This document shows positions 1,776 to 61,290 of a stretch of 64,000 nt of DNA, piece after piece (positions within the stretch are counted from its first letter, which is position 1; each line of letters opens with the position of its first letter). The notes under the pieces were generated by a model. The model was not told the DNA's origin. It worked only from the letters and a program-made list of their open reading frames with translations, and searched no databases. The stretch comes from an uncultured Oscillospiraceae bacterium. GTDB taxonomy: Bacteria > Bacillota > Clostridia > Christensenellales > CAG-138. The position numbers and the translations under genes were made by a program. The stretch covers positions 341,528-405,527 of the forward strand of contig CAYTPV010000001.1 in NCBI GenBank assembly GCA_964440115.1, written 5' to 3'.

Positions 1776-2075
1776 TTATCCCGTACTGTGGGTGGACGCC
1801 AGTTTCGGCTTGAACTGCCTTTGCCCACAGTTCGGCATGGTCACGCTGCGTCGCCGAATACGGCTTCCTTGCGTTCCCTGCCTCACTGGACTTCCGGCTC
1901 GCTTCATCCCGCACTGCGGGCGCTTTCCCAGGTTCCCACCCAGGGCATCCGCAAGCGGATGGCCGTTTCGGCCTGCAAACGCTTCACTGGAGCGTTTGCT
2001 GCCTTCGGCACCGGCCTCAACCCCATTACCACATTGGCACTGAATGAAGGTAGGCAGGCCGAGTTTATTTTTCAG
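1776..2075. repeat. Copy A of a dispersed, structure-conserving intergenic element (candidate ncRNA; class unknown)
   Basis: There is no credible ORF; both-strand ORFs are Arg/Pro/Ala-rich and lack an RBS. Nested hairpins include 1785-1792/1824-1831, 1853-1864, 1908-1920, 1946-1961, 1961-1973 and 1975-1999. Core 1837-1920 aligns to the reverse complement of 59659-59741 with compensatory pair changes. Confidence 0.45.
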
Positions 2076-2120
2076 CTCCAAAAGAACGAGCACCCTTACG
2101 GGTGCTCGTTCTTTTGGAGC
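2075..2120 (-). terminator. 21-bp perfect hairpin after tRNA-Thr (bidirectional terminator-like)
   Basis: GCTCCAAAAGAACGAGCACCC / loop / GGGTGCTCGTTCTTTTGGAGC. The loop reads GTAA (GNRA) on the minus strand. The inner 12-bp GC-rich stem is followed by TTTTGG on either strand. The outer arm overlaps the tRNA 3' end. Confidence 0.6.
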
Positions 2121-2190
2121 TGATGAACAGATTCGAACTGTCTACCTCCTCATTACCAATGAGGTGCTCTACCGACTGAGCTACATCAGC
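2115..2190 (-). tRNA. tRNA-Thr (anticodon GGU), CCA encoded
   Basis: I folded the reverse complement GCTGATGTAGCTCAGTCGGTAGAGCACCTCATTGGTAATGAGGAGGTAGACAGTTCGAATCTGTTCATCAGCTCCA by hand into a cloverleaf. It has a 7-bp acceptor stem, a D-arm GCTC/GAGC, an anticodon stem CCTCA/TGAGG with loop TTGGTAA, and a T-arm with loop TTCGAAT. Confidence 0.92.
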
Positions 2191-4922: not shown

Positions 4923-6198
4923 TATTGGCGTTATTTCGCTGGGCTGCTCCAAAAACAGAGTGGATACGGAACGCATGCTGGGGCTTTTGAGTGCATCCGG
5001 ACACACGATTGTGCAGGACCCTGCCATCGCAGATGTACTGATCATCAATACCTGCGGCTTTATTGAGTCAGCAAAGCAGGAAAGCATCGACACCATACTC
5101 GAGATGGCAGCCTATAAACAGACAGGCAATTGCCGCACGCTCGTGGTCACAGGCTGTTTATCGCAGCGCTACCGGGAAGAACTCACAAACGAACTGCCCG
5201 AAGTGGATATTTTTCTAGGTGTACGGGAATACGAGCGTCTGCCCGGCCTGTTATCGGGCGGCAAGCCCTGCGCGGCAGTCGCCGCGCGCAGGCTGACTAC
5301 GCCATCCTATTCCGCTTATCTGCGCATAGGCGACGGCTGCAACAACCGCTGCTCCTACTGCGCGATACCTCTCATTCGCGGGCCGCTGCACAGCGTGCCC
5401 ATGCCTAATTTAATCGAAGAAGCGCGCGTCCTTGTGGACGGCGGCGTAACGGAGCTTACGCTCATCGCGCAGGATACATCCGGCTATGGTGTGGACCTCT
5501 ACGACAAGCCCATGCTGCTTCCGCTTATGAATGAACTGACGAAGATATCCGGACTCGTGTGGCTGCGTGTACTGTACACCTACCCCGATACCGTGACGGA
5601 GGAACTCATTCGCGGCATCGCGGATAACGAAAAGATATGCCGATACCTCGACATCCCCCTGCAGCATGTGGACGATGAGATACTCAAACGCATGCACCGC
5701 CGCGGCAACCGCGCGCATATTGAGAGCGTACTGGGACTCATCCGTTCGAAGTATCCTGACTTCATGCTGCGCACCACCATGATGACGGGCTTCCCCGGCG
5801 AGACGCAGGCACAGCACGAGGACATGCTGCGTTTTCTGCGGGAATATCCCTTCGATCGCGTAGGCGCGTTTGCATTCTCGCCTGAAGAGGATACGCCTGC
5901 ATCACTGATGCAGGAACAGCTGCCCGAGGACGTGAAACAGGAGCGGTTAAACGCGCTCATGGCACAGCAGCAGGGCATATCTCGTGCGCGAAACGCCGCA
6001 AGAGTTGGCAGCATCGTTACGGTGCTGGTGGAAAATACAAACGCAGACATGACGCGGGGACGTTCCTATGCGGAAGCGCCCGAAGTGGACGGCAGCATAT
6101 TCCTTCCGGCCAAACCGCATCACAAGGCAGGTCAGTATCTGCGGGTAAAACTTACCCGCGCGCACAACTACGATATCTTTGGGGAGGAATTATCGTGA
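4915..6198 (+). CDS. rimO: Ribosomal protein S12 methylthiotransferase RimO (radical SAM)
   Basis: It carries MSNIGVISLGCSKNRVDTE, the radical-SAM motif CNNRCSYCAIP and a C-terminal TRAM-like domain. ATG 4915 overlaps the ftsK stop; the ORF-track start 4888 is also possible. Confidence 0.85.
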   Translation: MSNIGVISLGCSKNRVDTERMLGLLSASGHTIVQDPAIADVLIINTCGFIESAKQESIDTILEMAAYKQTGNCRTLVVTGCLSQRYREELTNELPEVDIFLGVREYERLPGLLSGGKPCAAVAARRLTTPSYSAYLRIGDGCNNRCSYCAIPLIRGPLHSVPMPNLIEEARVLVDGGVTELTLIAQDTSGYGVDLYDKPMLLPLMNELTKISGLVWLRVLYTYPDTVTEELIRGIADNEKICRYLDIPLQHVDDEILKRMHRRGNRAHIESVLGLIRSKYPDFMLRTTMMTGFPGETQAQHEDMLRFLREYPFDRVGAFAFSPEEDTPASLMQEQLPEDVKQERLNALMAQQQGISRARNAARVGSIVTVLVENTNADMTRGRSYAEAPEVDGSIFLPAKPHHKAGQYLRVKLTRAHNYDIFGEELS

Positions 6199-6731
6199 AT
6201 CTTCCAAACAAGCTGACGTTAACCCGCATCGCACTCATTCCTTTTTTTATCGCCTGTTTCTACTTACGCGTCTCCTACGCGAATCTGATTGCAGCGGTCG
6301 TGTTTACGCTTGCGTATCTGACGGACGTTTTTGACGGGCAGATTGCGCGCAAACACAATCTCATCACCAATTTCGGCAAACTCATGGACCCGATTGCGGA
6401 TAAGCTGTTAACCTGCAGCGCGTTTATCATGCTGGTCAGCTTCGGTATGCTTTCCCCCATCGCCGCCATCATCGTCATAGGCCGTGAATTCATCATCAGC
6501 GGCTTCCGCCTTGTAGCGGCGGGCAGCGGCAATGTCATCGCGGCAAGCTGGCTGGGCAAAATGAAAACGGTCTCGCAATTTGTGGCCATCAATCTGCTGC
6601 TCATCTGGCCCTATACGGGGCTTATCAGTTTTCCTCTGGACAGCATCGTGCTGTGGATTTCCGTATTTTTCACCGCATGGTCCGGCGTGGATTATATCGT
6701 CAAGAACCGTGCAAGCGTCAATTTCTCATAA
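6195..6731 (+). CDS. pgsA: CDP-diacylglycerol--glycerol-3-phosphate 3-phosphatidyltransferase
   Basis: GTG start overlaps the rimO stop. It has the CDP-alcohol phosphotransferase motif DVFDGQIARKHNLITNFGKLMDPIADKLL and multiple TM segments. Confidence 0.9.
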   Translation: MNLPNKLTLTRIALIPFFIACFYLRVSYANLIAAVVFTLAYLTDVFDGQIARKHNLITNFGKLMDPIADKLLTCSAFIMLVSFGMLSPIAAIIVIGREFIISGFRLVAAGSGNVIAASWLGKMKTVSQFVAINLLLIWPYTGLISFPLDSIVLWISVFFTAWSGVDYIVKNRASVNFS

Positions 6732-6746
6732 ACTAAGGGGGATATT

Positions 6747-7994
6747 ATGATCGCCGAACTGATCAGCGTTGGAACAGAGCTGTTGATGGGGCAGGTCCTC
6801 AATACGGACGCCCAATTCATGGCGCAGAACCTTGCGCCCATGGGGGTAAACGTATATCATCAGGTGACCGTCGGCGATAATCCCGGCCGCCTGAAGGACG
6901 CAATCCACACGGCGCTTTCACGCGCGGATATCGTGATTTTGTCCGGCGGCCTGGGGCCGACGGGAGACGACCTGACCAAAGAGACCGTGGCCGATGCGTT
7001 TTCTCTGCCCATTGTGCGCGTGCCGGAAGCGGAAGAAACGCTGCGCGGCCGCTTTGCGGCAATGGGCCGGGAAATGACGCCCAACAACCTCAAGCAGGCG
7101 GATTTTCCACAAGGAAGCATCCTGTTAAAGAACCCCAACGGAACTGCACAGGGCTGCATTGTGGAGCATGAGGGCAAGGCCGCGATACTCCTGCCCGGGC
7201 CGCCGCGCGAGCTGTTTCCCATGTTTGAGAACGAAGTCATGCCCTATCTCATACAACGGAGCGGCAGCAAGCTGTACTCCCGTGAACTTCGAATTTTCGG
7301 CATGGGCGAATCCAGCGTGGAATACAGGCTCAAAGACCTGATGGACGCGCAGGATAACCCCACCATAGCGCCTTATGCGAAAACCGGCGAAGTCACGCTG
7401 CGCGTTACCGCGCGCTGCCAGAACGACGAAGAAGGTCTTGCGCTTGTTATGCCCGTCATTCGGGAGATTTTAGAGCGTCTCGGAGATATCGTGTATTCTA
7501 CGCAGGGCGTACCTCTCGCGGGAGTTTGTTCTGCACTGCTCGAAGAAAAGAACGTGATGCTCGCCGTAGCGGAAAGCTGCACGGGCGGCCTTCTTTCTTC
7601 CACACTGGTGGATGTGCCGGGCAGTTCGGCGTACTTTATGGAAGGCGTCGTGACGTACTCTGACGCGTCCAAGATGCGAAGGCTGCAGGTATCCACCGCC
7701 ACCATCCGCAAGCACGGAGCGGTCAGCGAAGAATGTGCGCGCGAAATGGCTGCGGGTATGCGCAGAACATCCAGCGCTGACTATGCGCTGGCCACAACAG
7801 GTATCGCAGGCCCCGGCGGTGCGACCAAGGACAAGCCCGTCGGTTTGGTGTATATCGCGATAGCAGGACCGGACGGGGTAGTTTGCCGCCGCCTGCACCT
7901 GACCGGCGACCGAGCCCGCATACGCGAAGTGACGGTGCTCAACGCGCTGGATCTGCTGCGCCGTACGCTGCTGGGATTGCCGATACCGGAATAA
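6747..7994 (+). CDS. cinA: Competence/damage-inducible protein CinA (MoCF-binding + NMN amidohydrolase domains)
   Basis: It begins MIAELISVGTELLMGQVLNTDAQF and has a C-terminal PncC-like domain (AVAESCTGGLLS). It sits in the classic position upstream of recA. Confidence 0.88.
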   Translation: MIAELISVGTELLMGQVLNTDAQFMAQNLAPMGVNVYHQVTVGDNPGRLKDAIHTALSRADIVILSGGLGPTGDDLTKETVADAFSLPIVRVPEAEETLRGRFAAMGREMTPNNLKQADFPQGSILLKNPNGTAQGCIVEHEGKAAILLPGPPRELFPMFENEVMPYLIQRSGSKLYSRELRIFGMGESSVEYRLKDLMDAQDNPTIAPYAKTGEVTLRVTARCQNDEEGLALVMPVIREILERLGDIVYSTQGVPLAGVCSALLEEKNVMLAVAESCTGGLLSSTLVDVPGSSAYFMEGVVTYSDASKMRRLQVSTATIRKHGAVSEECAREMAAGMRRTSSADYALATTGIAGPGGATKDKPVGLVYIAIAGPDGVVCRRLHLTGDRARIREVTVLNALDLLRRTLLGLPIPE

Positions 7995-18959: not shown

Positions 18960-19837
18960 ACCTTATCCGTACTTTTCTCGCCGAAGAGGCCGGTCGGCCT
19001 GCAGAGAAGCATAATGATGAGCAGCAGGAACGTAAATGCGTCGCTGAACGTGGAATACCCCAACGCTACAAGCATTGTCTCAGATATACCGATCAACAGA
19101 CCGCCCACCACTGCGCCGGGAATACTGCCTATTCCGCCGAACACCGCCGCCACAAAGCATTTGAGGCCCGGCAGCGTACCGGAAAACGGCGTAACGGACA
19201 TACGGTCCGTAAAATAGAGTATAGAACCGATCGCCGCAAGCGCGGAGCCGATGACGAACGTAACGCTGATAACGGTATTGATTTTTATGCCCATCAGCTG
19301 AGATGTTTCAAAATCCTTACTGACAGCACGCATCGCCATGCCTACTTTGGTATGGTTGATGAGCATCATCAGCGCGATGACCAGCAATACCGTAAGCACA
19401 GGCGTCAGAAATGTGACGAGGCTTGCAGAAAGGTCGCCGAGCTGGAATATTCGTTTTAAGAACGGTATTTCCGGATAGGGCCGCGGAATGGCTGTGAACA
19501 GATAAGTCGCCAAATTCTGCAGCAAATAGGAAACACCTATGGCGGAAATCATGATGGACATGCGCGGGGCCCGGCGCAATGGCTTATATGCCGCGCGCTC
19601 TATAGCGACGCCCAGCACGATCGTCGCGATGATGACGACGGGGATCGCAATCTGCCAGGGCATGCTCGACATGCAGAATATCATAAAATATCCGGCAATC
19701 ATAAAAATTTCGCCGTGTGCGAAGTTAATCAGCCGCAATATGCCATATACCATCGTATAGCCGATGGCAATAAGGGCATAGGCGCCGCCAAGCGATATAC
19801 CCGTCAGGCAATGCTGCAACAAAGTTGTCAGGCTCAT
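18956..19837 (-). CDS. livH: Branched-chain amino acid ABC transporter permease (LivH-like)
   Basis: Polytopic permease with INFAHGEIFMIAGY, typical of LivH. Confidence 0.85.
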   Translation of the reverse strand: MSLTTLLQHCLTGISLGGAYALIAIGYTMVYGILRLINFAHGEIFMIAGYFMIFCMSSMPWQIAIPVVIIATIVLGVAIERAAYKPLRRAPRMSIMISAIGVSYLLQNLATYLFTAIPRPYPEIPFLKRIFQLGDLSASLVTFLTPVLTVLLVIALMMLINHTKVGMAMRAVSKDFETSQLMGIKINTVISVTFVIGSALAAIGSILYFTDRMSVTPFSGTLPGLKCFVAAVFGGIGSIPGAVVGGLLIGISETMLVALGYSTFSDAFTFLLLIIMLLCRPTGLFGEKSTDKV

Positions 19838-20029
19838 GAAAGGAACGCCCTCCCCAATAGTACTTGAAACAGAAGTTTTTGTGAGCGCACGGCCTGATGT
19901 GTGATCGCCGTCTGCTCTAAGCGATTCATACTAACAAATGTATTTCGTATATGCAGAAGTTATATAGTAAGAATACTCGTAATGTACCGGCTTGTAAAGA
20001 GCATGGACTAATCATATATTCACAGATTT

Positions 20030-20067
20030 TGGAAATAAAGAAGGCGGGAGACGAGGCGCCTCCCGCC
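20030..20067 (-). terminator. Intra-operon terminator/attenuator after the binding-protein gene
   Basis: The minus strand reads GGCGGGAG-loop-CTCCCGCC followed by TTCTTTATTT. Confidence 0.6.
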
Positions 20068-20085
20068 CTCCTTAGCGGCAGGTAA

Positions 20086-21321
20086 TTAACCTCCGACCTT
20101 GACTGTCTTGAGGAACTTGAACTGGCCGTCCTGCACGGTCTTGATGAAAGCCATGTCCTTCTTGGCATCGCCGTTTTCATCGAAGGAGATAGCGCCGGTC
20201 ACGCCTTCAATATTTACGCCCACGAGCGCGTCGCGGATGGCGACGGAGTCGGTGGAGTTGGCCTTCTTGATGGCTTCAAGCGCGGTGATGTAAGCATCAT
20301 ATCCAAGCGCGGAAACGGCGGGAATGATTTCGGACTGACCGTTATCCTTCAGATACTTCTTGAAGCCTTCGATGAATTTGGCAGCTTCCGCGGTAGCGGG
20401 GTCTGCATCATCAAAGAAGGTGGACAGCACGATGCCTTCAGCATCCTTGCCGGCATTTTCAATAATGGAGGCGTTTTCCCATGTGTCGCCAGCCATGATC
20501 TTGGCGGTGATGCCAAGCTCACGTGCCTGCTTGATGATCAAGGGAGCGGTGGCGATGGAAGAGGGCGCGAATATAACGTCCGGATTGGCGGCCTTGATGT
20601 TGGTGAGGATGGCCTTGAAATCCGTCTGATTGGTCTGGAACTGTTCTTCAGAAGCGACGGTGCCGCCCAGCTTCACGAAGGCATCCTTAAAGAAGCTGCC
20701 CAAGCCGGAGGAGTAGTCGTCACCCAGCTGCGTGATGATGGCAGCAGTCTTGGCGCCTTCCTGCACAGCATAGTTTGCCATGACGGTGCCCTGGAAGGGA
20801 TCGAGGAAGCAAACGCGGAAGTAGAAGTCGTTGCCCAGCGTAACCTGCGGGTTGGTGCAGGAAGCGCCAATGGCGGCAACCTTCGCTTCGGCGAAGATTT
20901 CGCCAGCCGCGATGGACACGCCGGAGCCGTAGGAACCGAGTATGACCTTGCAGTCCGCGCTGATCAGGCTCTGCGCGGCGGATACAGCCTCAGTCTTATC
21001 GGACTTGTTATCCGCTTCGACCAGCTCGATCTTGTACGTTTCGCCGTTGATGTCGACGGTCGGATACACGGTGTTTGCATAGCGCATACCCATGACTTCC
21101 TGGAGACCGCCGCCGCCGTTTTCACCGGTCTGTGGTTCAAACACGCCGATCTTGATGACCTTGTCGCCTGCCGCGGGCTGTTCGGCAGGAGCAGCGGTCG
21201 CTTCCGCAGCGGGTGCAGCGGGTGCAGCAGTAGCTTCCGGCGTGGCCGCAGGTGCGCACGCAGTCAGGAACGCCGCCATTGCCATTGCGATGGCAAGTAC
21301 CAGCATCAGTGTCTTCTTCAT
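20086..21321 (-). CDS. livJ: Branched-chain amino acid ABC transporter substrate-binding lipoprotein
   Basis: MKKTLMLVLAIAMAMAAFLTAC lipobox, an Ala/Pro/Glu-rich linker, then a type-I periplasmic binding fold. AAGGAGG RBS precedes ATG 21321. Confidence 0.85.
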   Translation of the reverse strand: MKKTLMLVLAIAMAMAAFLTACAPAATPEATAAPAAPAAEATAAPAEQPAAGDKVIKIGVFEPQTGENGGGGLQEVMGMRYANTVYPTVDINGETYKIELVEADNKSDKTEAVSAAQSLISADCKVILGSYGSGVSIAAGEIFAEAKVAAIGASCTNPQVTLGNDFYFRVCFLDPFQGTVMANYAVQEGAKTAAIITQLGDDYSSGLGSFFKDAFVKLGGTVASEEQFQTNQTDFKAILTNIKAANPDVIFAPSSIATAPLIIKQARELGITAKIMAGDTWENASIIENAGKDAEGIVLSTFFDDADPATAEAAKFIEGFKKYLKDNGQSEIIPAVSALGYDAYITALEAIKKANSTDSVAIRDALVGVNIEGVTGAISFDENGDAKKDMAFIKTVQDGQFKFLKTVKVGG

Positions 21322-37235: not shown

Positions 37236-37295
37236 TTCGGTTTGCTCCTTCTCCTGATTTATACTGGCATACCCCCTGCCGGCCGGGAGTTCCTA

Positions 37296-38171
37296 TTATT
37301 CCCGAGGACTGCCAAAAAACGCGACGCCGACAGCGCCCGGCCCCGCATAGCAGCCCGTGATAGGTCCCATCGGCAGTATGGAAGCGTCGGCACAGCCGAC
37401 CTCCGTACAAAGTATTTCCTTAAGCTGAGCGGCCAAATCCGGCGCGTCGGCATGCGTAATCGCGACGATCTGGTTGTTAAGCGCATATCCCATGCGGCGT
37501 ACGCTTTCCGCCATACTGTTCAGAGCTTCCGGATCATCCTTCGCCCTGCCTTCTACGGCAGGCCTGCCAGCCGCATCCATACGCAGCACGGTTTTGCGGC
37601 CGAGAAGCTCGCCCATTGCGCCGCCCTGATACATCCCCGACTCGCGCAGCCATTTCAGATCCGCGGGCAGCAGCAGCGCATTGACATATGTGCGGTTGTT
37701 CACCACCCAGGACGCAACTTCATTGAGGCTCTTGCCTTCCCTGCGCATAAAGGCTGCTTCAAACACCAGCATCCCCTGCGCGACTGCACAGCATGTACTA
37801 TCCGCTACGACTATCCTGCGCAAAGGGTAGCGCGCTACAAGTTCTTCTCGCGCATGCTGCGCAGCAAGGAATGTTTTGCTCAAATGCCTGGATATGCAGA
37901 TGGCGAGCACATCCCGCCCCTGTATGAGATGCGGTTCCCACAGCGCGCGAAACGCTTCGGGCAGCACGGGTATTGTGCCCACCTGTGCGCCGTTGCGCAT
38001 AGCGAAATAGAAAGCGGATAAATCCGTTTCCCGACCCAGATCATATGCGTAAGCAGCCCCATTCATTTTATAATGCAGATGCGCGATTTCGACCTGCTGC
38101 TGCTTTGCGGTTCCCCACGGCATGTCCGCGCCGGTATCCGTGCAGATAACAAATGTATTTTCGGGATTCAT
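37296..38171 (-). CDS. DegV-family fatty-acid-binding protein (paralogue)
   Basis: FVICTDTGADMP..., DSTCCAVAQGMLV and ITGCYAGPGAVGVAFF. The start is set at the MNPENTF Met; the tracked ORF is longer. Confidence 0.82.
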   Translation of the reverse strand: MNPENTFVICTDTGADMPWGTAKQQQVEIAHLHYKMNGAAYAYDLGRETDLSAFYFAMRNGAQVGTIPVLPEAFRALWEPHLIQGRDVLAICISRHLSKTFLAAQHAREELVARYPLRRIVVADSTCCAVAQGMLVFEAAFMRREGKSLNEVASWVVNNRTYVNALLLPADLKWLRESGMYQGGAMGELLGRKTVLRMDAAGRPAVEGRAKDDPEALNSMAESVRRMGYALNNQIVAITHADAPDLAAQLKEILCTEVGCADASILPMGPITGCYAGPGAVGVAFFGSPRE

Positions 38172-55351: not shown

Positions 55352-55945
55352 ATGTTTTTAATCGTAGGCCTGGGCAACCCGGGCATCGCCTACCGGTCTT
55401 CCCGCCACAACGCGGGCTTTTTGGCGTTGGACGTGCTGGCCGAGCGGCTCAATATCGCGCTGGTTAAACGCGCGCACAAAGCCATTGTCGGCGAAGGATA
55501 CTGTAACGGACAAAAGGTAATACTTGCAAAGCCGCAGACGTATATGAACCTAAGCGGCGAATCCGTGCAGTCGCTGCTTTCCTATTACAAGCTGCCCTTA
55601 GACAGGTTGGTCGTGCTCTACGACGACATCGACCTTTCTGTAGGGGATATCCGAATTAGAGCCTCGGGCAGTGCGGGCACGCACAACGGCATGCGTTCCA
55701 TACTTGTCTGCTTGGGTAATGAGGAAGGTTTTCCGCGCGTGCGCATAGGCGTAGGCAAGCAGAAGCCCGGGCGAGATCTCGCATCGCATGTGCTGGGCAA
55801 GCCCGCGGCGGAGGAGCAGGAACTGCTCGAACAGGCGTATCAAAACGCGGCCGAAGCCGCCGCCCTCATCGTGGACGGACGGCTGCTGGACGCGCAGACA
55901 AAATATAACAAACGAAAAAAGAACGCGGAACCGGAGGAGGCATGA
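55352..55945 (+). CDS. pth: Peptidyl-tRNA hydrolase
   Basis: MFLIVGLGNPG...YRSSRHNAGF, typical of Pth. It is followed by mfd, as in most Firmicutes. Confidence 0.93.
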   Translation: MFLIVGLGNPGIAYRSSRHNAGFLALDVLAERLNIALVKRAHKAIVGEGYCNGQKVILAKPQTYMNLSGESVQSLLSYYKLPLDRLVVLYDDIDLSVGDIRIRASGSAGTHNGMRSILVCLGNEEGFPRVRIGVGKQKPGRDLASHVLGKPAAEEQELLEQAYQNAAEAAALIVDGRLLDAQTKYNKRKKNAEPEEA

Positions 55946-58900
55946 CGGAGCAAACGCACCCGCTGCTGCAGGTGCTCAAAGAATCGCCGGAATACAACCG
56001 GCTTGAGGAGATCCTTACCGGCGCGGAAGGCCCCGCGGCGGCTTTTGGTCTGCCCGAAGCGCACAGGGCGCATGTATTCGCTGCACTTGCACGCGAGCGA
56101 GGGGGGCTTTTCATCGCATCCGGCGAGCAGGCGGCGGAAAAGCTGTACCAGCTTTCCTCGGCGCTCAACCCGGATATCGTACTGCTGCCCGCCCGTGAAC
56201 TTCCGCTCGTCAACGCGTATGCCGCATCGGGTGAAGGCGCGAAAACGCGTATCGCATCGCTCATACGGCTCGCGCTGCAAAAGCGCATAGGCGTTATCGT
56301 TTCGGCCGAAGCCGCATTGCAGCGGCTTGCGCCGCCGGAGGTACTGCGCCACGCAGCGCATACGCTTAAACTGGGCGGCATTCATCCGCCCCGTGAACTG
56401 CTTCGGCAACTGAGCGACGCGGGCTACGAGCCGGTGGAGCTTGTGGAAGGGCCGGGACAGGCGGCTTTGCGCGGCGATATACTCGATATATACCCGCCGC
56501 ACGCGCAGCAGCCCTGCCGCGTGGAATTCTTCGACGACGAGATCGACCGCATGAGCCTGTTTGATCCCGTCAGCCAGCGCTCGCTCGAGCGCGTAACAGA
56601 AATACTGCTGCCGCCCGCCACCGAAGCGCCGCAGGACGCGGCGGTGATCGCCCGGGCGCTTTTAGCCATACACGGCGCGAAAGGATTCGACGCACAGCGC
56701 ACGGCGTTTGAACAGGGACACGCCTGCCCCGGCGCGGAAACGCTGCTGCCCGTATTGTACGAAGGCACATACAGCATATTCGACTACCTGCCCGCCGACG
56801 CGCCCATACTGCTTGAAGAACCACATCGCGTGGAAGAGGCTGCGGAAGCCGCTTCCCGCCTGTTCATGCAATCCGTTACAGCCATGCTGGATCGCGGCGA
56901 AGGCATTGCCGAGCAGGCAGACCTGCAAATGACGGCCGACGCGCTGTTCCGGCTGCTGCATACGCCGCGTACCGGTCTTTTATTTACGCTCACGCGTAGT
57001 TTTACGCGCATACGAATCAGGGAAAGCGTACAGTTTGACGCGCGCCCCGCGCCGCAATATCCCGGCGAGCGGGCGGAACTGGCGCGGGATATCGCGCTCG
57101 CGCGCAGAACGGGAGCGGCCATACTGTTGTTTGCGGGTGCTCATGCGCAGCGCGTGCAGCAGCAGTTACTCGATGAAGACTGCGAAACGGCGCGCGCGGA
57201 GACATTGACGCGTTTGCCGGTACGCGGCGAAGCTCTTATATTGGATGAAAGTCTGCCGCAGGGTTTTGTATACCCATCGCTGCGGCTTACCGTACTTACT
57301 GAAGCAGAGTTGTTTGGCTTTACGCGGACGGCCGCACGCAAGCGGCAGTCAAACAAGCCTAGGCTGATGTTCTCAGAACTGCGGCCGGGCGATCTCGTGG
57401 TGCATGAAACGCACGGTATTGGACGTTTTGTAGGCGTGGAAGCGCTTACGGTGCAGGACAACACGCGGGATTATCTGCTCATGGAATACATGGGCGGCGA
57501 CCGCCTGTATATCCCAACCGATCAGCTCGACCGCGTGCAGAAATACGTTGGCTCCGACGACGAGCCCAAATTATCCAAACTGGGCGGCAGCGAGTGGCAG
57601 CGACAGGTCAGCCGCGCGAAAAGCGCAGTCAAGGAACTGGCGTTCGATCTTGCCAAGCTGTACGCGACACGGCAGGACACGCAGGGCTTTGCGTTCTCAC
57701 ACGATACGCCTTGGCAGCGGCAGCTTGAAGAGCGTTTTCCCTATACGGAAACGCCGGACCAACTTCAAAGCATTGAAGAGATCAAACGCGATATGGAAAG
57801 CGGCCGCGTCATGGACCGGCTGCTGTGCGGCGATGTGGGCTACGGCAAAACGGAAGTGGCGCTGCGCGCCGCTTTCAAAGCCGTGCAGGACAGCAAACAG
57901 GTTGCCTTCCTTGTGCCGACCACCATACTCGCGCAGCAGCACTACAACACGCTCTCCACCCGCTTTTCAGGGTTTCCTGTGCGGGTAGCGCTGCTCTCCC
58001 GCTTTAAATCGGCGCAGGAGATCAAACAAACCAAACAGGCGCTCATGAACGGGCAGGTCGATGTCGTGGTGGGGACGCACGCGCTGCTTTCCAAGGATGT
58101 GAAATTCAAGGATCTGGGGCTTTTGGTTATCGACGAGGAACAGCGCTTCGGCGTAGGGCACAAGGAACAGATCAAGACTCTCAAAACCAATGTGGACGTT
58201 CTTACGCTGAGCGCTACGCCCATACCGCGCACGCTGCATATGTCCATGATCGGCATACGCGATATGAGCATCATCGATACGCCGCCGGAAGATCGCTACC
58301 CTGTGCAGACCTATGTGCTGGAGTATTCGGATATCCTGCTGTGCGACGCCGTCAGAAAAGAGCTTTCGCGCGGCGGGCAATGCTACATCGTTTATAATCA
58401 GGTACACCGGCTGGAACGGTTCGCCGAGCACCTCCGCGCGATGCTGCCCGAGGTATCAGTCGCCTGCGCGCACGGCCAGATGAACGAGCGCGCGCTCGAG
58501 CGCGTGATGCTGGATTTCATGGAAGAACGCTACAATGTTCTGCTGTGCAGCACGATCATTGAAAACGGACTGGATATCGCAAACGTCAATACGCTGTTCG
58601 TGCTTGAAGCCGACCGCATGGGCCTTTCGCAGCTCTATCAGCTGCGCGGGCGGGTTGGCCGGTCCTCGCGGCTTGGATACGCGTATTTCACATTCATGCG
58701 CGACAGGGCTTTGACCGAAGTAGCGCAAAAGCGGCTGATGGCGCTTACGGAATTTGCGCAGTTCGGCGCGGGCCGCGAAATCGCGCTGCGGGATTTGGAA
58801 ATCCGGGGCGCGGGCAGCTTATTAGGCGCGCAGCAGCACGGGCATATCGCGGATATCGGCTACGAGTATTATACAAAGCTCATGGCAGCCGCCGTGCGCG

Positions 58901-59376
58901 AAGCGCGAGGGGAACCGGAAGCTCCGCCGGATGTGGATACGACGGTGGATATCCCCATCGACGCGCACATCCCCAAGAGCTACATCAAGAGCGAGGTGCA
59001 GAGGCTTTCCATGTATAAACGCATCGCGCTCATTACGGGGCGTTCCATGCTGTTCGACGTGCAGGAAGAAATGGAGGACCGCTACGGCGATATCCCCGCC
59101 GCCACACAGAACCTCATGGATATCGCGCTTGTTAAGGCGCTGTGCGGACGCGCGCAGATATTGACTCTGACCGTTCGCGAAGGTATTGCACGCATGGCAT
59201 TCCACTCGCAGGCACAGCTTGATGGCGCGCGCATGCTGCAGGCCGCTGCCGCTTACGGCGCGCAGATACTGCCCGGCGACACCGTTTCTCTGCTGTACAA
59301 GAAATCCGAAGCCGATGTAGAGGAAATGCTGCACGCGCTTCTGCCGCTTCTCGAAACACTGTGCGGATGCATATAA
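55942..59376 (+). CDS. mfd: Transcription-repair coupling factor
   Basis: 1144 aa with a CarD-like domain (GDLVVHETHGIGRF), DEAD-box helicase motifs (GDVGYGKTEVALRAA, VIDEEQRFG) and a TRG region. It overlaps the pth stop. Confidence 0.95.
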   Translation: MTEQTHPLLQVLKESPEYNRLEEILTGAEGPAAAFGLPEAHRAHVFAALARERGGLFIASGEQAAEKLYQLSSALNPDIVLLPARELPLVNAYAASGEGAKTRIASLIRLALQKRIGVIVSAEAALQRLAPPEVLRHAAHTLKLGGIHPPRELLRQLSDAGYEPVELVEGPGQAALRGDILDIYPPHAQQPCRVEFFDDEIDRMSLFDPVSQRSLERVTEILLPPATEAPQDAAVIARALLAIHGAKGFDAQRTAFEQGHACPGAETLLPVLYEGTYSIFDYLPADAPILLEEPHRVEEAAEAASRLFMQSVTAMLDRGEGIAEQADLQMTADALFRLLHTPRTGLLFTLTRSFTRIRIRESVQFDARPAPQYPGERAELARDIALARRTGAAILLFAGAHAQRVQQQLLDEDCETARAETLTRLPVRGEALILDESLPQGFVYPSLRLTVLTEAELFGFTRTAARKRQSNKPRLMFSELRPGDLVVHETHGIGRFVGVEALTVQDNTRDYLLMEYMGGDRLYIPTDQLDRVQKYVGSDDEPKLSKLGGSEWQRQVSRAKSAVKELAFDLAKLYATRQDTQGFAFSHDTPWQRQLEERFPYTETPDQLQSIEEIKRDMESGRVMDRLLCGDVGYGKTEVALRAAFKAVQDSKQVAFLVPTTILAQQHYNTLSTRFSGFPVRVALLSRFKSAQEIKQTKQALMNGQVDVVVGTHALLSKDVKFKDLGLLVIDEEQRFGVGHKEQIKTLKTNVDVLTLSATPIPRTLHMSMIGIRDMSIIDTPPEDRYPVQTYVLEYSDILLCDAVRKELSRGGQCYIVYNQVHRLERFAEHLRAMLPEVSVACAHGQMNERALERVMLDFMEERYNVLLCSTIIENGLDIANVNTLFVLEADRMGLSQLYQLRGRVGRSSRLGYAYFTFMRDRALTEVAQKRLMALTEFAQFGAGREIALRDLEIRGAGSLLGAQQHGHIADIGYEYYTKLMAAAVREARGEPEAPPDVDTTVDIPIDAHIPKSYIKSEVQRLSMYKRIALITGRSMLFDVQEEMEDRYGDIPAATQNLMDIALVKALCGRAQILTLTVREGIARMAFHSQAQLDGARMLQAAAAYGAQILPGDTVSLLYKKSEADVEEMLHALLPLLETLCGCI

Positions 59377-59406
59377 CCGACAAAGTGGAAACATCCACTT
59401 TGTCGG
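59377..59406. terminator. 13-bp perfect hairpin abutting the mfd stop codon
   Basis: CCGACAAAGTGGA-AACA-TCCACTTTGTCGG. No T-tract follows on the plus strand; TTATAT follows on the minus strand. It is also the first module of the repeat-rich gap. Confidence 0.45.
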
Positions 59407-59900
59407 GGTCACCGCGTTGTTCGGTGCTCGGTTTCCTGCTACGCAGGAAAGCTGTCGCCCCAAACAACGCTTCAAGGTGTCATTTTGCACCGCACATGTC
59501 GCTGCAAAATGACGGATTAAAAGTCTCTGATGCATGAAGACCGTCTGCATATGGGCGCGGGAAGCGGAGCCGCATGTTGGTCAGAGCATGCCTCGTGATT
59601 TTCGCAAGGGATTCAAACTAACTCGTATAACGAGGGCGCGGGGAGTCGAAGTCGCGCGCCGCCTGTGGCGGATGAAGCGCTGCGGAAGACCAGTGAGTTA
59701 GGGAGCGCAAGAAACAGCTTGCTGTGACACAGCGCGACCATAACGAACTGCGAAGCCCTCCCGCTTTATAATAAAAAAATCTGCGGCCACGACGGTCCAC
59801 AGGCCTAGTGCCCGAGGCGTCCCCCGCCGAGGGCCAGGCGGCGATACTGATTTATTTCGTAGCGGTGCAACACATTGATACTTCATTTCACTCTAAACTG
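59407..59900. repeat. Copy B (composite) of the dispersed structured intergenic element; core 59659-59741
   Basis: The reverse complement of 59659-59741 aligns to 1837-1920 at about 62 of 84 positions by hand, with five compensatory pair swaps. The left part carries a GGTTTCCTGC-TAC-GCAGGAAA hairpin and the CACATGTCGCTGC box inside an 11-bp stem (59480-59514). Confidence 0.5.
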
Positions 59901-60029
59901 TAAAATGAAGGATTTTATATTCCCCTTCATTTTCCATAGTTTCCACCGATACTGTATATATGGGCCGAAAACCGCCTTGAACCGGCGGTTTGTTTCATGT
60001 TTATTCATTGGATATCCCCATGCCACGCA

Positions 60030-60038
60030 TGGTATGAT
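60030..60038 (+). promoter_or_regulatory. Extended -10 (TGgTATGAT), candidate promoter of the SH3b-CAP gene
   Basis: TGGTATGAT lies about 30 nt upstream of ATG 60070. Confidence 0.4.
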
Positions 60039-60069: not shown

Positions 60070-61029
60070 ATGAAGCGCTTCTTGCAAATGACTGCGATTG
60101 TCTTAAGTCTGATAGTTGCGTTTGCTTTCGCCGCTCCGGCGCTCGCCGCTCCCGCCAGTTGCTCCGGTGACGCGTATACCGTCATCGTCAAGCAAACGGA
60201 CGATGTGCAGGTACTCGCAAGTACTGCATACGTGCAGGCTACGGCGGCTGTCAATGTGCGCAGCGGACCGGGTACGTCCTATACGATACTCGGTAAACTC
60301 AGCGCCGGCGATAAGGTCGAGAAGCTGGGCGTATCCGGCACCTGGACAAAAATCAACTACAACGGAAAAGCTGCTTATGTAAGCACAAAATATGTAAAAG
60401 ACATATCCGAGACAACCGCCACTTACATGCAGGCGACCGCCAACGTCAATGTACGCAGCGGACCCGGCACCAGCTACGCGAAACTCGGTCAGCTTTATAA
60501 AGGTACCATCGTGCCCAAGCTCGGCACCTCCGGCTCATGGACCAAGATTGTTTACAACAGCAAGACGGCTTATGTGAGCACAAAATATCTCAAAGCCAGC
60601 AGCTATACCGGCGGCACCGGCAATTCAGGCGGGTCAGGCGGTGCGTCATCCTCTTCTACATTCAACGACGCGGCCGCGGCAGAGATGATTTCCATTCTCA
60701 ACGGCTACCGTCAGGACGAAGGACTTGCCAAACTGACCACCACTGCTGCACTTAACAAGGCCGCGAAGATCCGCGTACAGGAGATCGTAAAGAGCTTCAG
60801 CCATACACGGCCGAACGGCACGCTCTGCTTTACGGTAGATTCCGATCATATTCAGGGTGAAAATATCGCCAAGGGCTCCGGTCTGCCCACCGCGCAATCC
60901 GCTGCGGACGGCTTTATGAACTCCCCGAAACACAGGGAGAATGCCATGCGGGCAAGCTTTACAAAGACCGGCGCAGCCTGCCTCAAGGTAGGCGCAACCA
61001 CCTACTGGGTACATCTGTTCGGTTATTAA
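60070..61029 (+). CDS. Secreted protein with two SH3b domains and a C-terminal CAP/SCP (YkwD-like) domain
   Basis: Signal peptide ending APALA. It has two ~70-aa repeats (VNVRSGPGTSY..LG.L..G..V.KLG.SG.WTKI.YN.K.AYVSTKY) and a C-terminal CAP block (NGYRQDEGL..., SPKHRENAM). Confidence 0.8.
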   Translation: MKRFLQMTAIVLSLIVAFAFAAPALAAPASCSGDAYTVIVKQTDDVQVLASTAYVQATAAVNVRSGPGTSYTILGKLSAGDKVEKLGVSGTWTKINYNGKAAYVSTKYVKDISETTATYMQATANVNVRSGPGTSYAKLGQLYKGTIVPKLGTSGSWTKIVYNSKTAYVSTKYLKASSYTGGTGNSGGSGGASSSSTFNDAAAAEMISILNGYRQDEGLAKLTTTAALNKAAKIRVQEIVKSFSHTRPNGTLCFTVDSDHIQGENIAKGSGLPTAQSAADGFMNSPKHRENAMRASFTKTGAACLKVGATTYWVHLFGY

Positions 61030-61054
61030 GCCGCGCAGGGAACCATTGCACACA

Positions 61055-61084
61055 TCAAAAAAGCGGCGAATGCCGCTTTTTTGA
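61055..61084 (+). terminator. Rho-independent terminator (symmetrical A/T flanks)
   Basis: TCAAAAAAGCGGC-GAAT-GCCGCTTTTTTGA. Confidence 0.8.
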
Positions 61085-61088
61085 TATT

Positions 61089-61290
61089 CCACCGGTAAGC
61101 TCTTCGAGCTTACCGGTGGGTTTCTCAGGAAACCGCCTGCACCTTCCGGTGCGGCCGGCGGTTCCTGCAAGGAAAGCCTTGCATCGCAAGGCTTAACGCT
61201 CGCGCCGCGCATGTCGCCGCTCGCGAATGAAGCTTACACGCCAGAGTTAGTACAGACTGTTCCCACGAAGTCCAATTGATCTAATAGAAA
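61089..61290. repeat. Hairpin array plus degenerate third copy of the intergenic element
   Basis: Hairpin spans are 61089-61119 (14 bp), 61120-61133, 61137-61154 and 61174-61194 (9 bp). They are followed by the CGCATGTCGCCGC box (61208-61220) and GAATGAAGC...CCAGAGTTAG, which resembles GGATGAAGC...CCAGTGAGTTAG of copy B. Confidence 0.4.

Follow-up and report, generated by a model that had tools for sequence, protein, structure and literature searches.

A structured, mobile repeat core of Christensenellales-like Clostridia, found alone and within a carrier repeat downstream of mfd

Palindrome-associated transposable elements (PATEs) are non-autonomous derivatives of IS200/IS605 that are moved by a Y1 HUH transposase, and REP/REPIN repeats are 20-40-nt palindromes with a conserved GTAG-type head that occupy extragenic positions only. 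Here we describe another structured repeat, of ~100-110 nt, in a 64,000-nt stretch of contig CAYTPV010000001.1 from an uncultured Oscillospiraceae bacterium (GCA_964440115.1; hereafter the window, meaning the whole stretch). The window holds two copies of this repeat, which we call the core, in inverted orientation: copy A stands alone, and copy B lies within a second, carrier repeat downstream of mfd. Searches of the literature by sequence string and by topic gave no description of the element, Rfam searches of the window and of 16 related loci had no hit at gathering score, and permissive cut-offs gave nothing relevant (E<=10 around A or B, E<=1 around the related locus L042): the core family is undescribed in Rfam and in the searchable literature. 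We consider it probable, though far from settled, that A and B belong to a non-coding, non-autonomous mobile family of Christensenellales-like Clostridia that moves as a single strand, in the manner of PATEs.

The likeness to PATEs is extensive. The core is short and non-coding, has neither terminal inverted repeats (TIRs) nor a detectable target-site duplication (TSD), carries structured subterminal ends, is strand-specific, and may be inserted 3' of a short conserved target, here a G-run; the cleaved end of a PATE pairs with a guide beside a hairpin foot, a part that ACUG and CAGU would play in the core. Unlike PATEs, however, the core folds compactly into two domains, with both termini paired to a single internal strand. 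Its left-end geometry also differs from that of IS608, the guide of the core lying 3' of the hairpin, and there is no cognate TnpA or TnpB among the flanking open reading frames (ORFs) and no sequence or Rfam likeness to IS605 ends or omega RNAs. With REP, REPIN and BIME repeats (the RAYT group) the core shares a GC-rich, hairpin-forming, highly repeated and mosaic or nested character and a preference for gene 3' ends, but it is 3-4 times longer, lacks the GTAG head, is not a simple palindrome and also occurs inside ORFs.

A repeat search of the window identified 1865-1923 and 59656-59714 as its longest inverted repeat (59 nt, 78%). Blastn extends this match to 1828-1923 against 59750-59656 (96 nt, 75% identity, E~1e-13 against the window), bearing out the reverse-complement relation that the first-pass annotation had pointed to. 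A covariance model of the family, with both window copies among its training sequences, finds exactly two matches in the window, at 59634-59753 (+, 104 bits) and 1825-1945 (-, 95 bits). As that annotation had also supposed, the two are copies of a recurrent structured element with further copies in relatives. With a 21-base pattern drawn from the conserved blocks we recovered 19 loci in ~12 Clostridia metagenome-assembled genomes (MAGs), including Candidatus Pelethousia, with 4 matches in one MAG and 3 in another. A somewhat shorter one recovered 17 loci in metagenomes (human gut, digester and sediment samples), 6 of them at contig ends. Altogether, the pattern scans yielded ~40 further core copies in Christensenellales-like MAGs and metagenomes, several per genome; family copies score 80-120 bits, and IMG/VR gave no match to the same core pattern. 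Short-read contigs stop in or at the element (L037, L039, L023, L024, L028, L031, L033, L036), and Logan contigs of the window organism and of a relative break there; because contigs break at multi-copy repeats, the copy numbers in MAGs are underestimates.

These copies stand in unrelated surroundings. None of the loci L001-L036 shares flanking genes with the window, and the 122 ORFs that flank core copies are varied, ordinary housekeeping genes with no family enriched and no transposase or reverse transcriptase (RT) gene among them. It might be argued, from the presence of only two copies in 64 kb, that A and B are a neutrally drifting local duplication or a chance match. The E value of the match, the ~40 homologous copies in unrelated contexts of other genomes and a fold kept by compensatory changes leave this with next to no probability. 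Several other identities were also set aside: a tRNA-linked element, since only ~5 of 40 loci are near tRNAs; a riboswitch or cis-regulator of a regulon, since the neighboring genes are unrelated housekeeping genes; and a protein-coding core, since a 1-nt indel within the core separates A from B and copies show stop codons in the frame they share. Used as a protein query, the conceptual peptide of the core matched a single 75-aa ORF.

To describe the fold we used an alignment (A2) of 28 distinct core copies, read in the plus sense of copy B. Its consensus is GG-N-C GGA GCC GA GCGC [NNCC-NGU-GGNN] GAUGAA GCG A GGC GGAA G-N-CC AGU GAG CAA GGGAGC [variable hairpin] GCGACC A UUG CGA ACUG. RNAalifold resolves this into two domains: Domain 1 comprises P1, P2, P2a and the P3 hairpin with an AUGAA bulge, and Domain 2 comprises P4 (CAGU/ACUG), P5 and P6. 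Standard pairs occupy 96.6% of the cells of the predicted fold, and 13 of the 25 pairs show compensatory changes (78 cells). In a shuffle control, 0 of 500 sets reached the observed pairing values, and sliding the 3' partners by 1-3 columns left 28-39% of cells paired. The middle pair of P1 is variously G-C, C-G and A-U, and is U-A in copy B of the window. The analysis thus shows that the two-domain fold of the core is conserved. The unpaired stretches GAUGAAGCG, CGGAAG and AGUGAG are kept across orders. The 3' strand of P1 (GNC) is contiguous with the 5' strand of P4 (CAGU), so that the 3' end of the core (ACUG) and its 5' start (GNC) adjoin on one 7-nt internal strand, GNCCAGU. The core has no TIRs, its ends pairing with this internal strand and not with each other, and among the sequences compared we found no split or autonomous forms: Domains 1 and 2 are always together, ~75-80 nt apart.

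The clearest evidence of mobility comes from a filled and an empty site. The PG_binding_1 gene of L050 has the empty site (GTTTGGGGCCCCCGTACAC), reading GGCGTTTGGGGCCCCCGTACAC and encoding GVWGPRT; its orthologues in L049 and L051 have the core inserted precisely there (94 and 99 bits), and neither L050 nor L052 gives a covariance-model hit. In L051 the right flank (CCGCGTACGC) shows host sequence continuing directly after ACUG with no visible duplication, and comparison of L051 with L050 reveals no TSD. The insertion in L049 is in frame and open, adding 35 codons, and is predicted to lie within a 328-aa protein (P0123); that in L051 is out of frame, and the copies in L021 and L009 carry stop codons. 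L021 has a separate, independent insertion in the PG_binding_1 gene family, at its paralogous first repeat, where homologues read TGGGG(T/C)CCCAARACG. Recoding of TGA was considered and rejected, since L021 has TAA. Rickettsia palindromic elements are likewise structured repeats of ~100-150 nt that can insert in frame and be read through, as in L049 (P0123); they are unrelated in taxon and sequence, and the insertions in L021, L009 and L051 carry stops or break the frame.

Other insertions tell a similar story. Some cores hold others within their P6 loop, nested two to three deep (L026:44-222, L031:1-184, L033 on the minus strand), and the Walker A codons of decayed parA genes are split by insertions in L009 and L029. 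The latter were discarded as evidence of splicing, because the parA genes are decayed, breaking after PDDM in both. The parA gene of L020 has a segment replaced by a second, unrelated repeat of ~95 nt (GGGGCAAACTGGGGCAGTTTGCCCGTTCACTGCC...), which lies at ~150-260 and ~720-830 of the L020 reverse complement and also occurs in L022, L030, L032 and L035. One L020 copy is upstream of the human-gut parA and one is inside it; the internal copy keeps the frame, starts with TGA and replaces the segment before the IDCPPS motif. Together, the multiple copies, their unrelated contexts and their presence or absence at orthologous sites show that the core is mobile.

The probable target is a run of G residues. 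At least three G lie 5' of 15 of the 16 independent insertions, and this run, which might still partly belong to the element, is demonstrably host sequence at three sites, including the PG_binding_1 sites, and probably so in parA. Often it forms the 5' arm of a hairpin of the GGGG...CCCC type, or else a hairpin loop holds the insertion (L050, the L004 group, copy A of the window, the carrier repeat); around copy A, host-like arms lie at 1786-1796 (CTGTGGGTGGA) and 1934-1944 (TCCCACCCAGG). A permutation test for target duplications (own versus cross flanks, 23 copies) was not significant (p = 0.14). We therefore rejected a 7-bp TSD that the CGRAGCC-like 3' flank had suggested; the resemblance is largely explained by the many copies that share one ancestral carrier-repeat site.

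This combination bears directly on whether the core is an ordinary MITE (miniature inverted-repeat transposable element), moved by cut and paste with a DDE transposase. Small size, lack of coding capacity, multiple copies and presence/absence polymorphism are what such an element would show, and the carrier around B does behave in a MITE-like way, with TIRs and target duplications. The core itself, with no TIRs, no TSD and a strong orientation bias, makes this explanation very improbable; like neutral local duplication, a classical DDE MITE is effectively ruled out for the core.

The strand on which the core is read could be assigned from three sources. Copy B has a minimum free energy of -40.4 kcal/mol (z = -2.4) in the plus sense versus -32.8 (z = -0.6) in the opposite, and copy A has -43.9 kcal/mol (z = -3.0) in the minus sense versus -35.7 (z = -0.9). 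Of the 28 aligned cores, 27 have greater stability as RNA in the B-plus/A-minus sense, by a mean of 6.7 kcal/mol, and with DNA parameters the number is 26. The nearest upstream gene is co-oriented with this sense at 15 of 22 loci as called, and at ~18 of 22 after correction of three loci whose true neighbor is tRNA-Thr or parA. All copies inside ORFs or operons are in sense orientation (L021, L049/L051, L009/L029, L020 and the purC-purB spacer in L027). Because folding energy, gene co-orientation and the sense of the internal copies agree, the folding, gene-co-oriented strand is B-plus/A-minus, and the A-plus/B-minus transcript favored by the first-pass annotation is not upheld. In the B-plus sense the hairpin at 59377-59406, which had been seen as a possible end of such a transcript, lies upstream of the core and is not its terminator; it is the left end of the TIR-bounded carrier. 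As regards replication direction, the window shows no clear GC skew and has mixed gene strands.

Nothing indicates a dedicated transcript unit running from promoter to terminator. Consensus scans, which are weak evidence, found no promoter-like site adjoining A or B on either candidate strand, the sites found belonging to neighboring genes; none was found on the minus strand near B, and the only one around B belongs to the next gene. The first canonical plus-strand terminator, a hairpin with a T-run, comes well after the core (Table 1), so that B probably lies within a long mfd 3' untranslated region (UTR) and is probably transcribed only passively, as part of it. The core accordingly does not look like a stand-alone small RNA (sRNA) gene, having no promoter or terminator of its own by scan (again weak evidence) and occurring also inside ORFs and operons.

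Several of these observations could also be expected if the core were a functional structured RNA, either acting in cis as a 3'-UTR or intercistronic stabilizer, a processing site or a protein-binding site, or giving rise to trans-acting sRNAs, with its spread secondary to selection on the host. Strong covariation combined with invariant single-stranded motifs, folding that favors the gene-sense strand in 27 of 28 copies, a position just after co-oriented genes or between co-transcribed ones (purC-purB, L027), and a Domain 1 apex that is kept in another order and in viral contigs all fit such a role. We nevertheless regard it as unlikely: in our scans no promoter or terminator belongs to the core itself, the flanking genes have no common function, close relatives differ in the presence of the core at one site, copies interrupt ORFs, some with in-frame stops (L021, L009, L051), and copies insert into other copies, none of which a host RNA gene under selection would lead one to expect.

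In the single-strand reading that we prefer, the core would move as a folded single strand, most likely single-stranded DNA (ssDNA), by analogy with PATEs derived from IS200/IS605 or with REPINs, and would be mobilized in trans by an enzyme encoded elsewhere. The internal strand GNC-CAGU would hold the 5' start (GNC) beside the 3' end (ACUG) for cleavage and joining. A number of points weigh against this reading. The ssDNA mechanism is drawn from analogy only, and the 122 ORFs flanking the copies include no cognate transposase, whether Y1/HUH, RAYT or other. The orientation bias fits selection at the RNA level or RNA-mediated mobility equally well. Distinguishing the strands by G.U versus A.C pairs gives ~16 versus 10 cells, which are not independent, and the difference is not significant. 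The conservation of the unpaired stretches exceeds what a transposase site usually needs, so an RNA function could be involved. Finally, the exact boundaries of the core are uncertain by 1-4 nt, and L049 and L051, which share the same insertion, differ at its right junction (TGGA versus CCGC).

The geometry of the ends invites a different account, in which the core is an RNA-based mobile or self-processing element (a small ribozyme or the passenger of a retroelement) whose GNCCAGU strand aligns the ends for circularization, with return to DNA by reverse transcription or reverse splicing. The ACUG 3' end and the GNC 5' start do pair contiguously on one internal strand, as at a circle junction; the copies within ORFs or operons all follow the transcribed sense; there is no TSD; and one head-to-tail junction occurs in a sister element (L046/L047). 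No known ribozyme or intron model matches, however, even at E<=10, the core is too small for a group I or II intron, the flanking ORFs include no RT gene, no head-to-tail junction of the Christensenellales core occurs among the sequences compared, and the host genes around several ORF insertions are decayed, as if the insertions were not removed. We judge this account improbable. The comparison with group I and II introns is unfavorable in design as well as in size (~106 nt) and lack of a model match: the internal strand of the core aligns its own 3' end and then its 5' start, and not exon 1 and then exon 2. A broader proposal, which we put forward as a rather doubtful one, is that the core and its sister family form a new class of self-templating single-strand mobile elements, in which the guide GNC-CAGU would dock both termini in a circle-junction geometry, a hairpin loop or 5' arm would be targeted with no duplication, the intermediate would be circular ssDNA or RNA, and the enzyme would be of a class new to such elements or the catalysis partly the element's own.

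This sister family, which has the apical part of Domain 1 in common with the core, occurs in Vescimonas (Oscillospiraceae) and among IMG/VR viral contigs, in some of which it was found. Annotated plasmid and phage collections gave a single match, in an 860-kb record of Vescimonas fastidiosa MM35 that carries dnaA. There the element shares the Domain 1 apex (GAGCGC-hairpin-GAUGAAGCGAGG) and has a different Domain 2. It occupies the loop of a REP-like hairpin with a GTAG head (GGGCCGATGT^AGGCATCGGCCC), and this hairpin is found uninterrupted nearby. A Domain 1 pattern found six IMG/VR contigs with the same Vescimonas-type element. The covariation extends further in the viral variant L048, whose P1 reads CUUUUC/GAAAAG.

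We also made several side observations on these sister loci. At L046:10127-10490 (identical in L047) the Vescimonas-type 3' motif GGCACCGCAACAGG is followed directly by the 5' start GGAGCGATGG, the head-to-tail junction mentioned above, and the Domain 1 apex occurs once more upstream of tRNA-Pro, as though a copy contained the tRNA gene. In L048 (-, ~6095-6700) a Vescimonas-type element and a terminator are bracketed by the complete tRNA-Leu and by a 23-nt 5' fragment of tRNA-Leu that retains the sequence upstream of it; this amounts to a target duplication of ~35 nt. At a distance of ~0.7 kb there is a gene for a large serine recombinase, as also in L045. The V. fastidiosa record (L042, NZ_AP023416.1), labelled a plasmid, carries dnaA, dnaN, gyrB and rnpA, and its intergenic regions at 19500-20200 and 37290-37960 hold arrays of several GTAG-headed REP-like hairpin families.

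We now turn to the carrier that surrounds copy B. The intergenic region 3' of mfd (mfd 55942-59376, next gene from 60070) is, at 693 nt, the longest in the window. The carrier modules P-a, P-b, P-c and P-d (invariant loop CCGCRCATGTCGC) recur elsewhere as a ~300-nt unit with the TIRs CAGCTTGTCGAAAAAG ... CAGGCTGTCGATAAAC, in L008, L010, L011, L015, L017, L019, L034 and L040. The right end reads TTTATCGACAG elsewhere and CTTTTAAATAAAATAGC at the syntenic position in L040, and the degenerate right end of the window copy aligns with it. The AT-rich run noted earlier is present, one position to the right of where it had been placed (59765-59781, not 59764-59780), and, aligning with this right end, it is not an insert splitting the element. 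The helix described in the flank of B likewise exists, with one C.A pair (59422/59462) that is G.U on the minus strand, but had been placed one position off and is formed by 59414-59424 with 59460-59470. A hairpin does stand beside each copy on the same side of the core (59377-59406 and 2073-2122), as had been noted; the one near A has no detectable homology to carrier P-a and no T-run terminator by scan. Copy A itself lies ~180 nt downstream of a co-oriented tRNA-Thr (2115-2190, -).

A related region at 61137-61154, also pointed out earlier, is real: it falls in a third repeat copy, C (61054-61259), homologous to the flank of B and not to the A/B core. Copy C has blastn matches in L011, L017, L015, L008, L010 and L040 and no covariance-model hit to the core, and a second core-less carrier copy lies at L011:6064-6176. 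These core-less carriers indicate that core and carrier are independent modules. Carrier copies B and C flank the SH3_3/CAP gene in direct orientation, and the coordinates of all features are collected in Table 1.

Table 1. Positions of the core copies, the carrier repeats and neighboring features in the window.
Feature	Position	Strand	Basis or remark
Copy B, ~106-nt core	59645-59750	+	Covariance model, RNAalifold, pair counts, minimum free energy
Copy B, Domain 1	59645-59690	+	P1, P2, P2a, P3 hairpin CGCC-TGT-GGCG, AUGAA bulge
Copy B, internal guide strand GACCAGT	59688-59694	+	
Copy B, Domain 2	59691-59750	+	P4 CAGT/ACTG, P5 GTTA/TAAC, P6 with variable hairpin
Copy A, same core, solitary, outside any carrier repeat	1828-1934	-	Covariance-model hit, minimum free energy
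23-bp perfect hairpin near copy A	2073-2122		Abuts 3' end of tRNA-Thr; strand not assigned
Carrier (composite) repeat with copy B	59377-~59785	+	Bounded by TIRs; module homology to ~300-nt repeats
Carrier left-end hairpin P-a, CCGACAAAGTGGAAACATCCACTTTGTCGG	59377-59406	+	
Carrier P-b	59414-59470	+	Inner hairpin 59430-59452
Carrier P-d hairpin	59479-59513	+	Conserved loop CCGCACATGTCGC at 59490-59502
Carrier spacer, 128 nt	59513-59640	+	No other copy among sequences compared
Carrier degenerate AT-rich right end, TTTATAATAAAAAAATC	59765-59781	+	
36-nt GC-rich module, CAGGCCTAGTGCCCGAGGCGTCCCCCGCCGAGGGCC	59800-59835	+	Separate small repeat
Terminator-like hairpin with T-run	59969-59991	+	First canonical one downstream of mfd
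Promoter-like site of next gene	60009-60038	+	Only such site around B
Copy C, core-less carrier copy	61054-61259	+	25 nt after stop of SH3_3/CAP gene (60070-61029)
Copy C, P-a	61054-61085	+	
Copy C, extra hairpin	61089-61119	+	
Copy C, P-b	61126-61167	+	
Copy C, P-c	61169-61194	+	
Copy C, P-d	61197-61225	+	
Copy C, right end TTAGTACAGACTG	61247-61259	+	

The synteny comparison proposed earlier for the 3' end of mfd revealed an insertion polymorphism. The window mfd is 70% identical to its OttesenSCG-928-M15 homologue, and mfd homologues place the organism near Christensenellaceae-like bacteria. The window has core and carrier; L040 (mfd 79% identity) has the surrounding carrier modules without the core; and L041 (77%) has a plain terminator, with the next gene 43 nt away. 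Among the others, L038 (90%) has a P-a-like hairpin alone followed by unrelated sequence, L039 (84%) belongs to a contig that ends in CTGTCGAAAAAGTGG...CCACTTTTT, and the contig with the mfd of the same organism (L037) ends within the element. Where L040 reads GGGGGGCGGAGCC joined to TCCCGCTTTTAAATAAAATAG, the window reads, at the same place, GGGGAGT, the core and CGAAGCCC, joined to TCCCGCTTTATAATAAAAAAATC. Gene order 3' of mfd varies among close relatives (L040, L041), which probably reflects repeat-associated local rearrangement. On the other side of mfd, we observed that pth and mfd are spaced by 120-210 nt in relatives (L040:2288-2501; L041:2379-2501) versus a 4-nt overlap in the window.

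Long direct duplications, each with a hairpin inside, border three copies of the carrier or a relative of it: 37 nt at L015:1119-1413, 27 nt in L012 (minus strand) and a perfect 21 nt on either side of the nested element at L040:6139-6368. These duplications suggest structure-directed insertion at terminator hairpins. In its TIRs, modular build, flanking duplications and terminator-hairpin sites the carrier resembles the bacterial MITEs and mosaic repeats (Correia, ERIC/IRU, BOX, RUP, bcr1). IS1272, of the IS1182 family, has been reported to target inverted-repeat structures with no TSD (PMC5678879), and it is a loose analogue of the carrier, whose duplications are unusually long and include the whole hairpin. 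We found no insertion sequence that matches the carrier, and the likeness to MITEs and to the IS1182 family concerns the carrier and not the A/B core. The TIR-bounded carrier, of ~300-400 nt, lands at gene 3' ends, and copy B would have reached the mfd 3' region as its passenger or been inserted into it later.

Beyond the right end of the carrier lies the 36-nt GC-rich module, at a position where L040 has an uninterrupted hairpin, CGCCGCC-GCA-GGCGGCG. It has the form CAGGCCTAGTGCC-GAGGCG-UCCCC-CGCC-GAGGGCC, with tandem GA internal loops, and is also found at L014:7128-7173 and twice in L019 (including 7282-7315), in either orientation and also inside a core. In the window it fills the loop of the hairpin that L040 has intact, and it has the look of one more very small module with a habit of entering hairpin loops.

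If our reading is correct, the core represents a compact and well-supported mobile family, structured, TSD-less and orientation-specific, from a poorly studied gut lineage (Christensenellales/Oscillospirales), and one that offers clean filled and empty sites, nested insertions and both ends docked on one internal strand. This end-docking architecture keeps alive, as a possibility, an RNA-mediated or self-processing route. The core repeats and the carrier, which annotation pipelines currently do not flag, break short-read assemblies, make long structured 3' UTRs, as here after mfd, and interrupt or extend proteins. Knowing which enzyme mobilizes the core could bring to light a single-strand transposase, or another enzyme, in a new pairing with its substrate.

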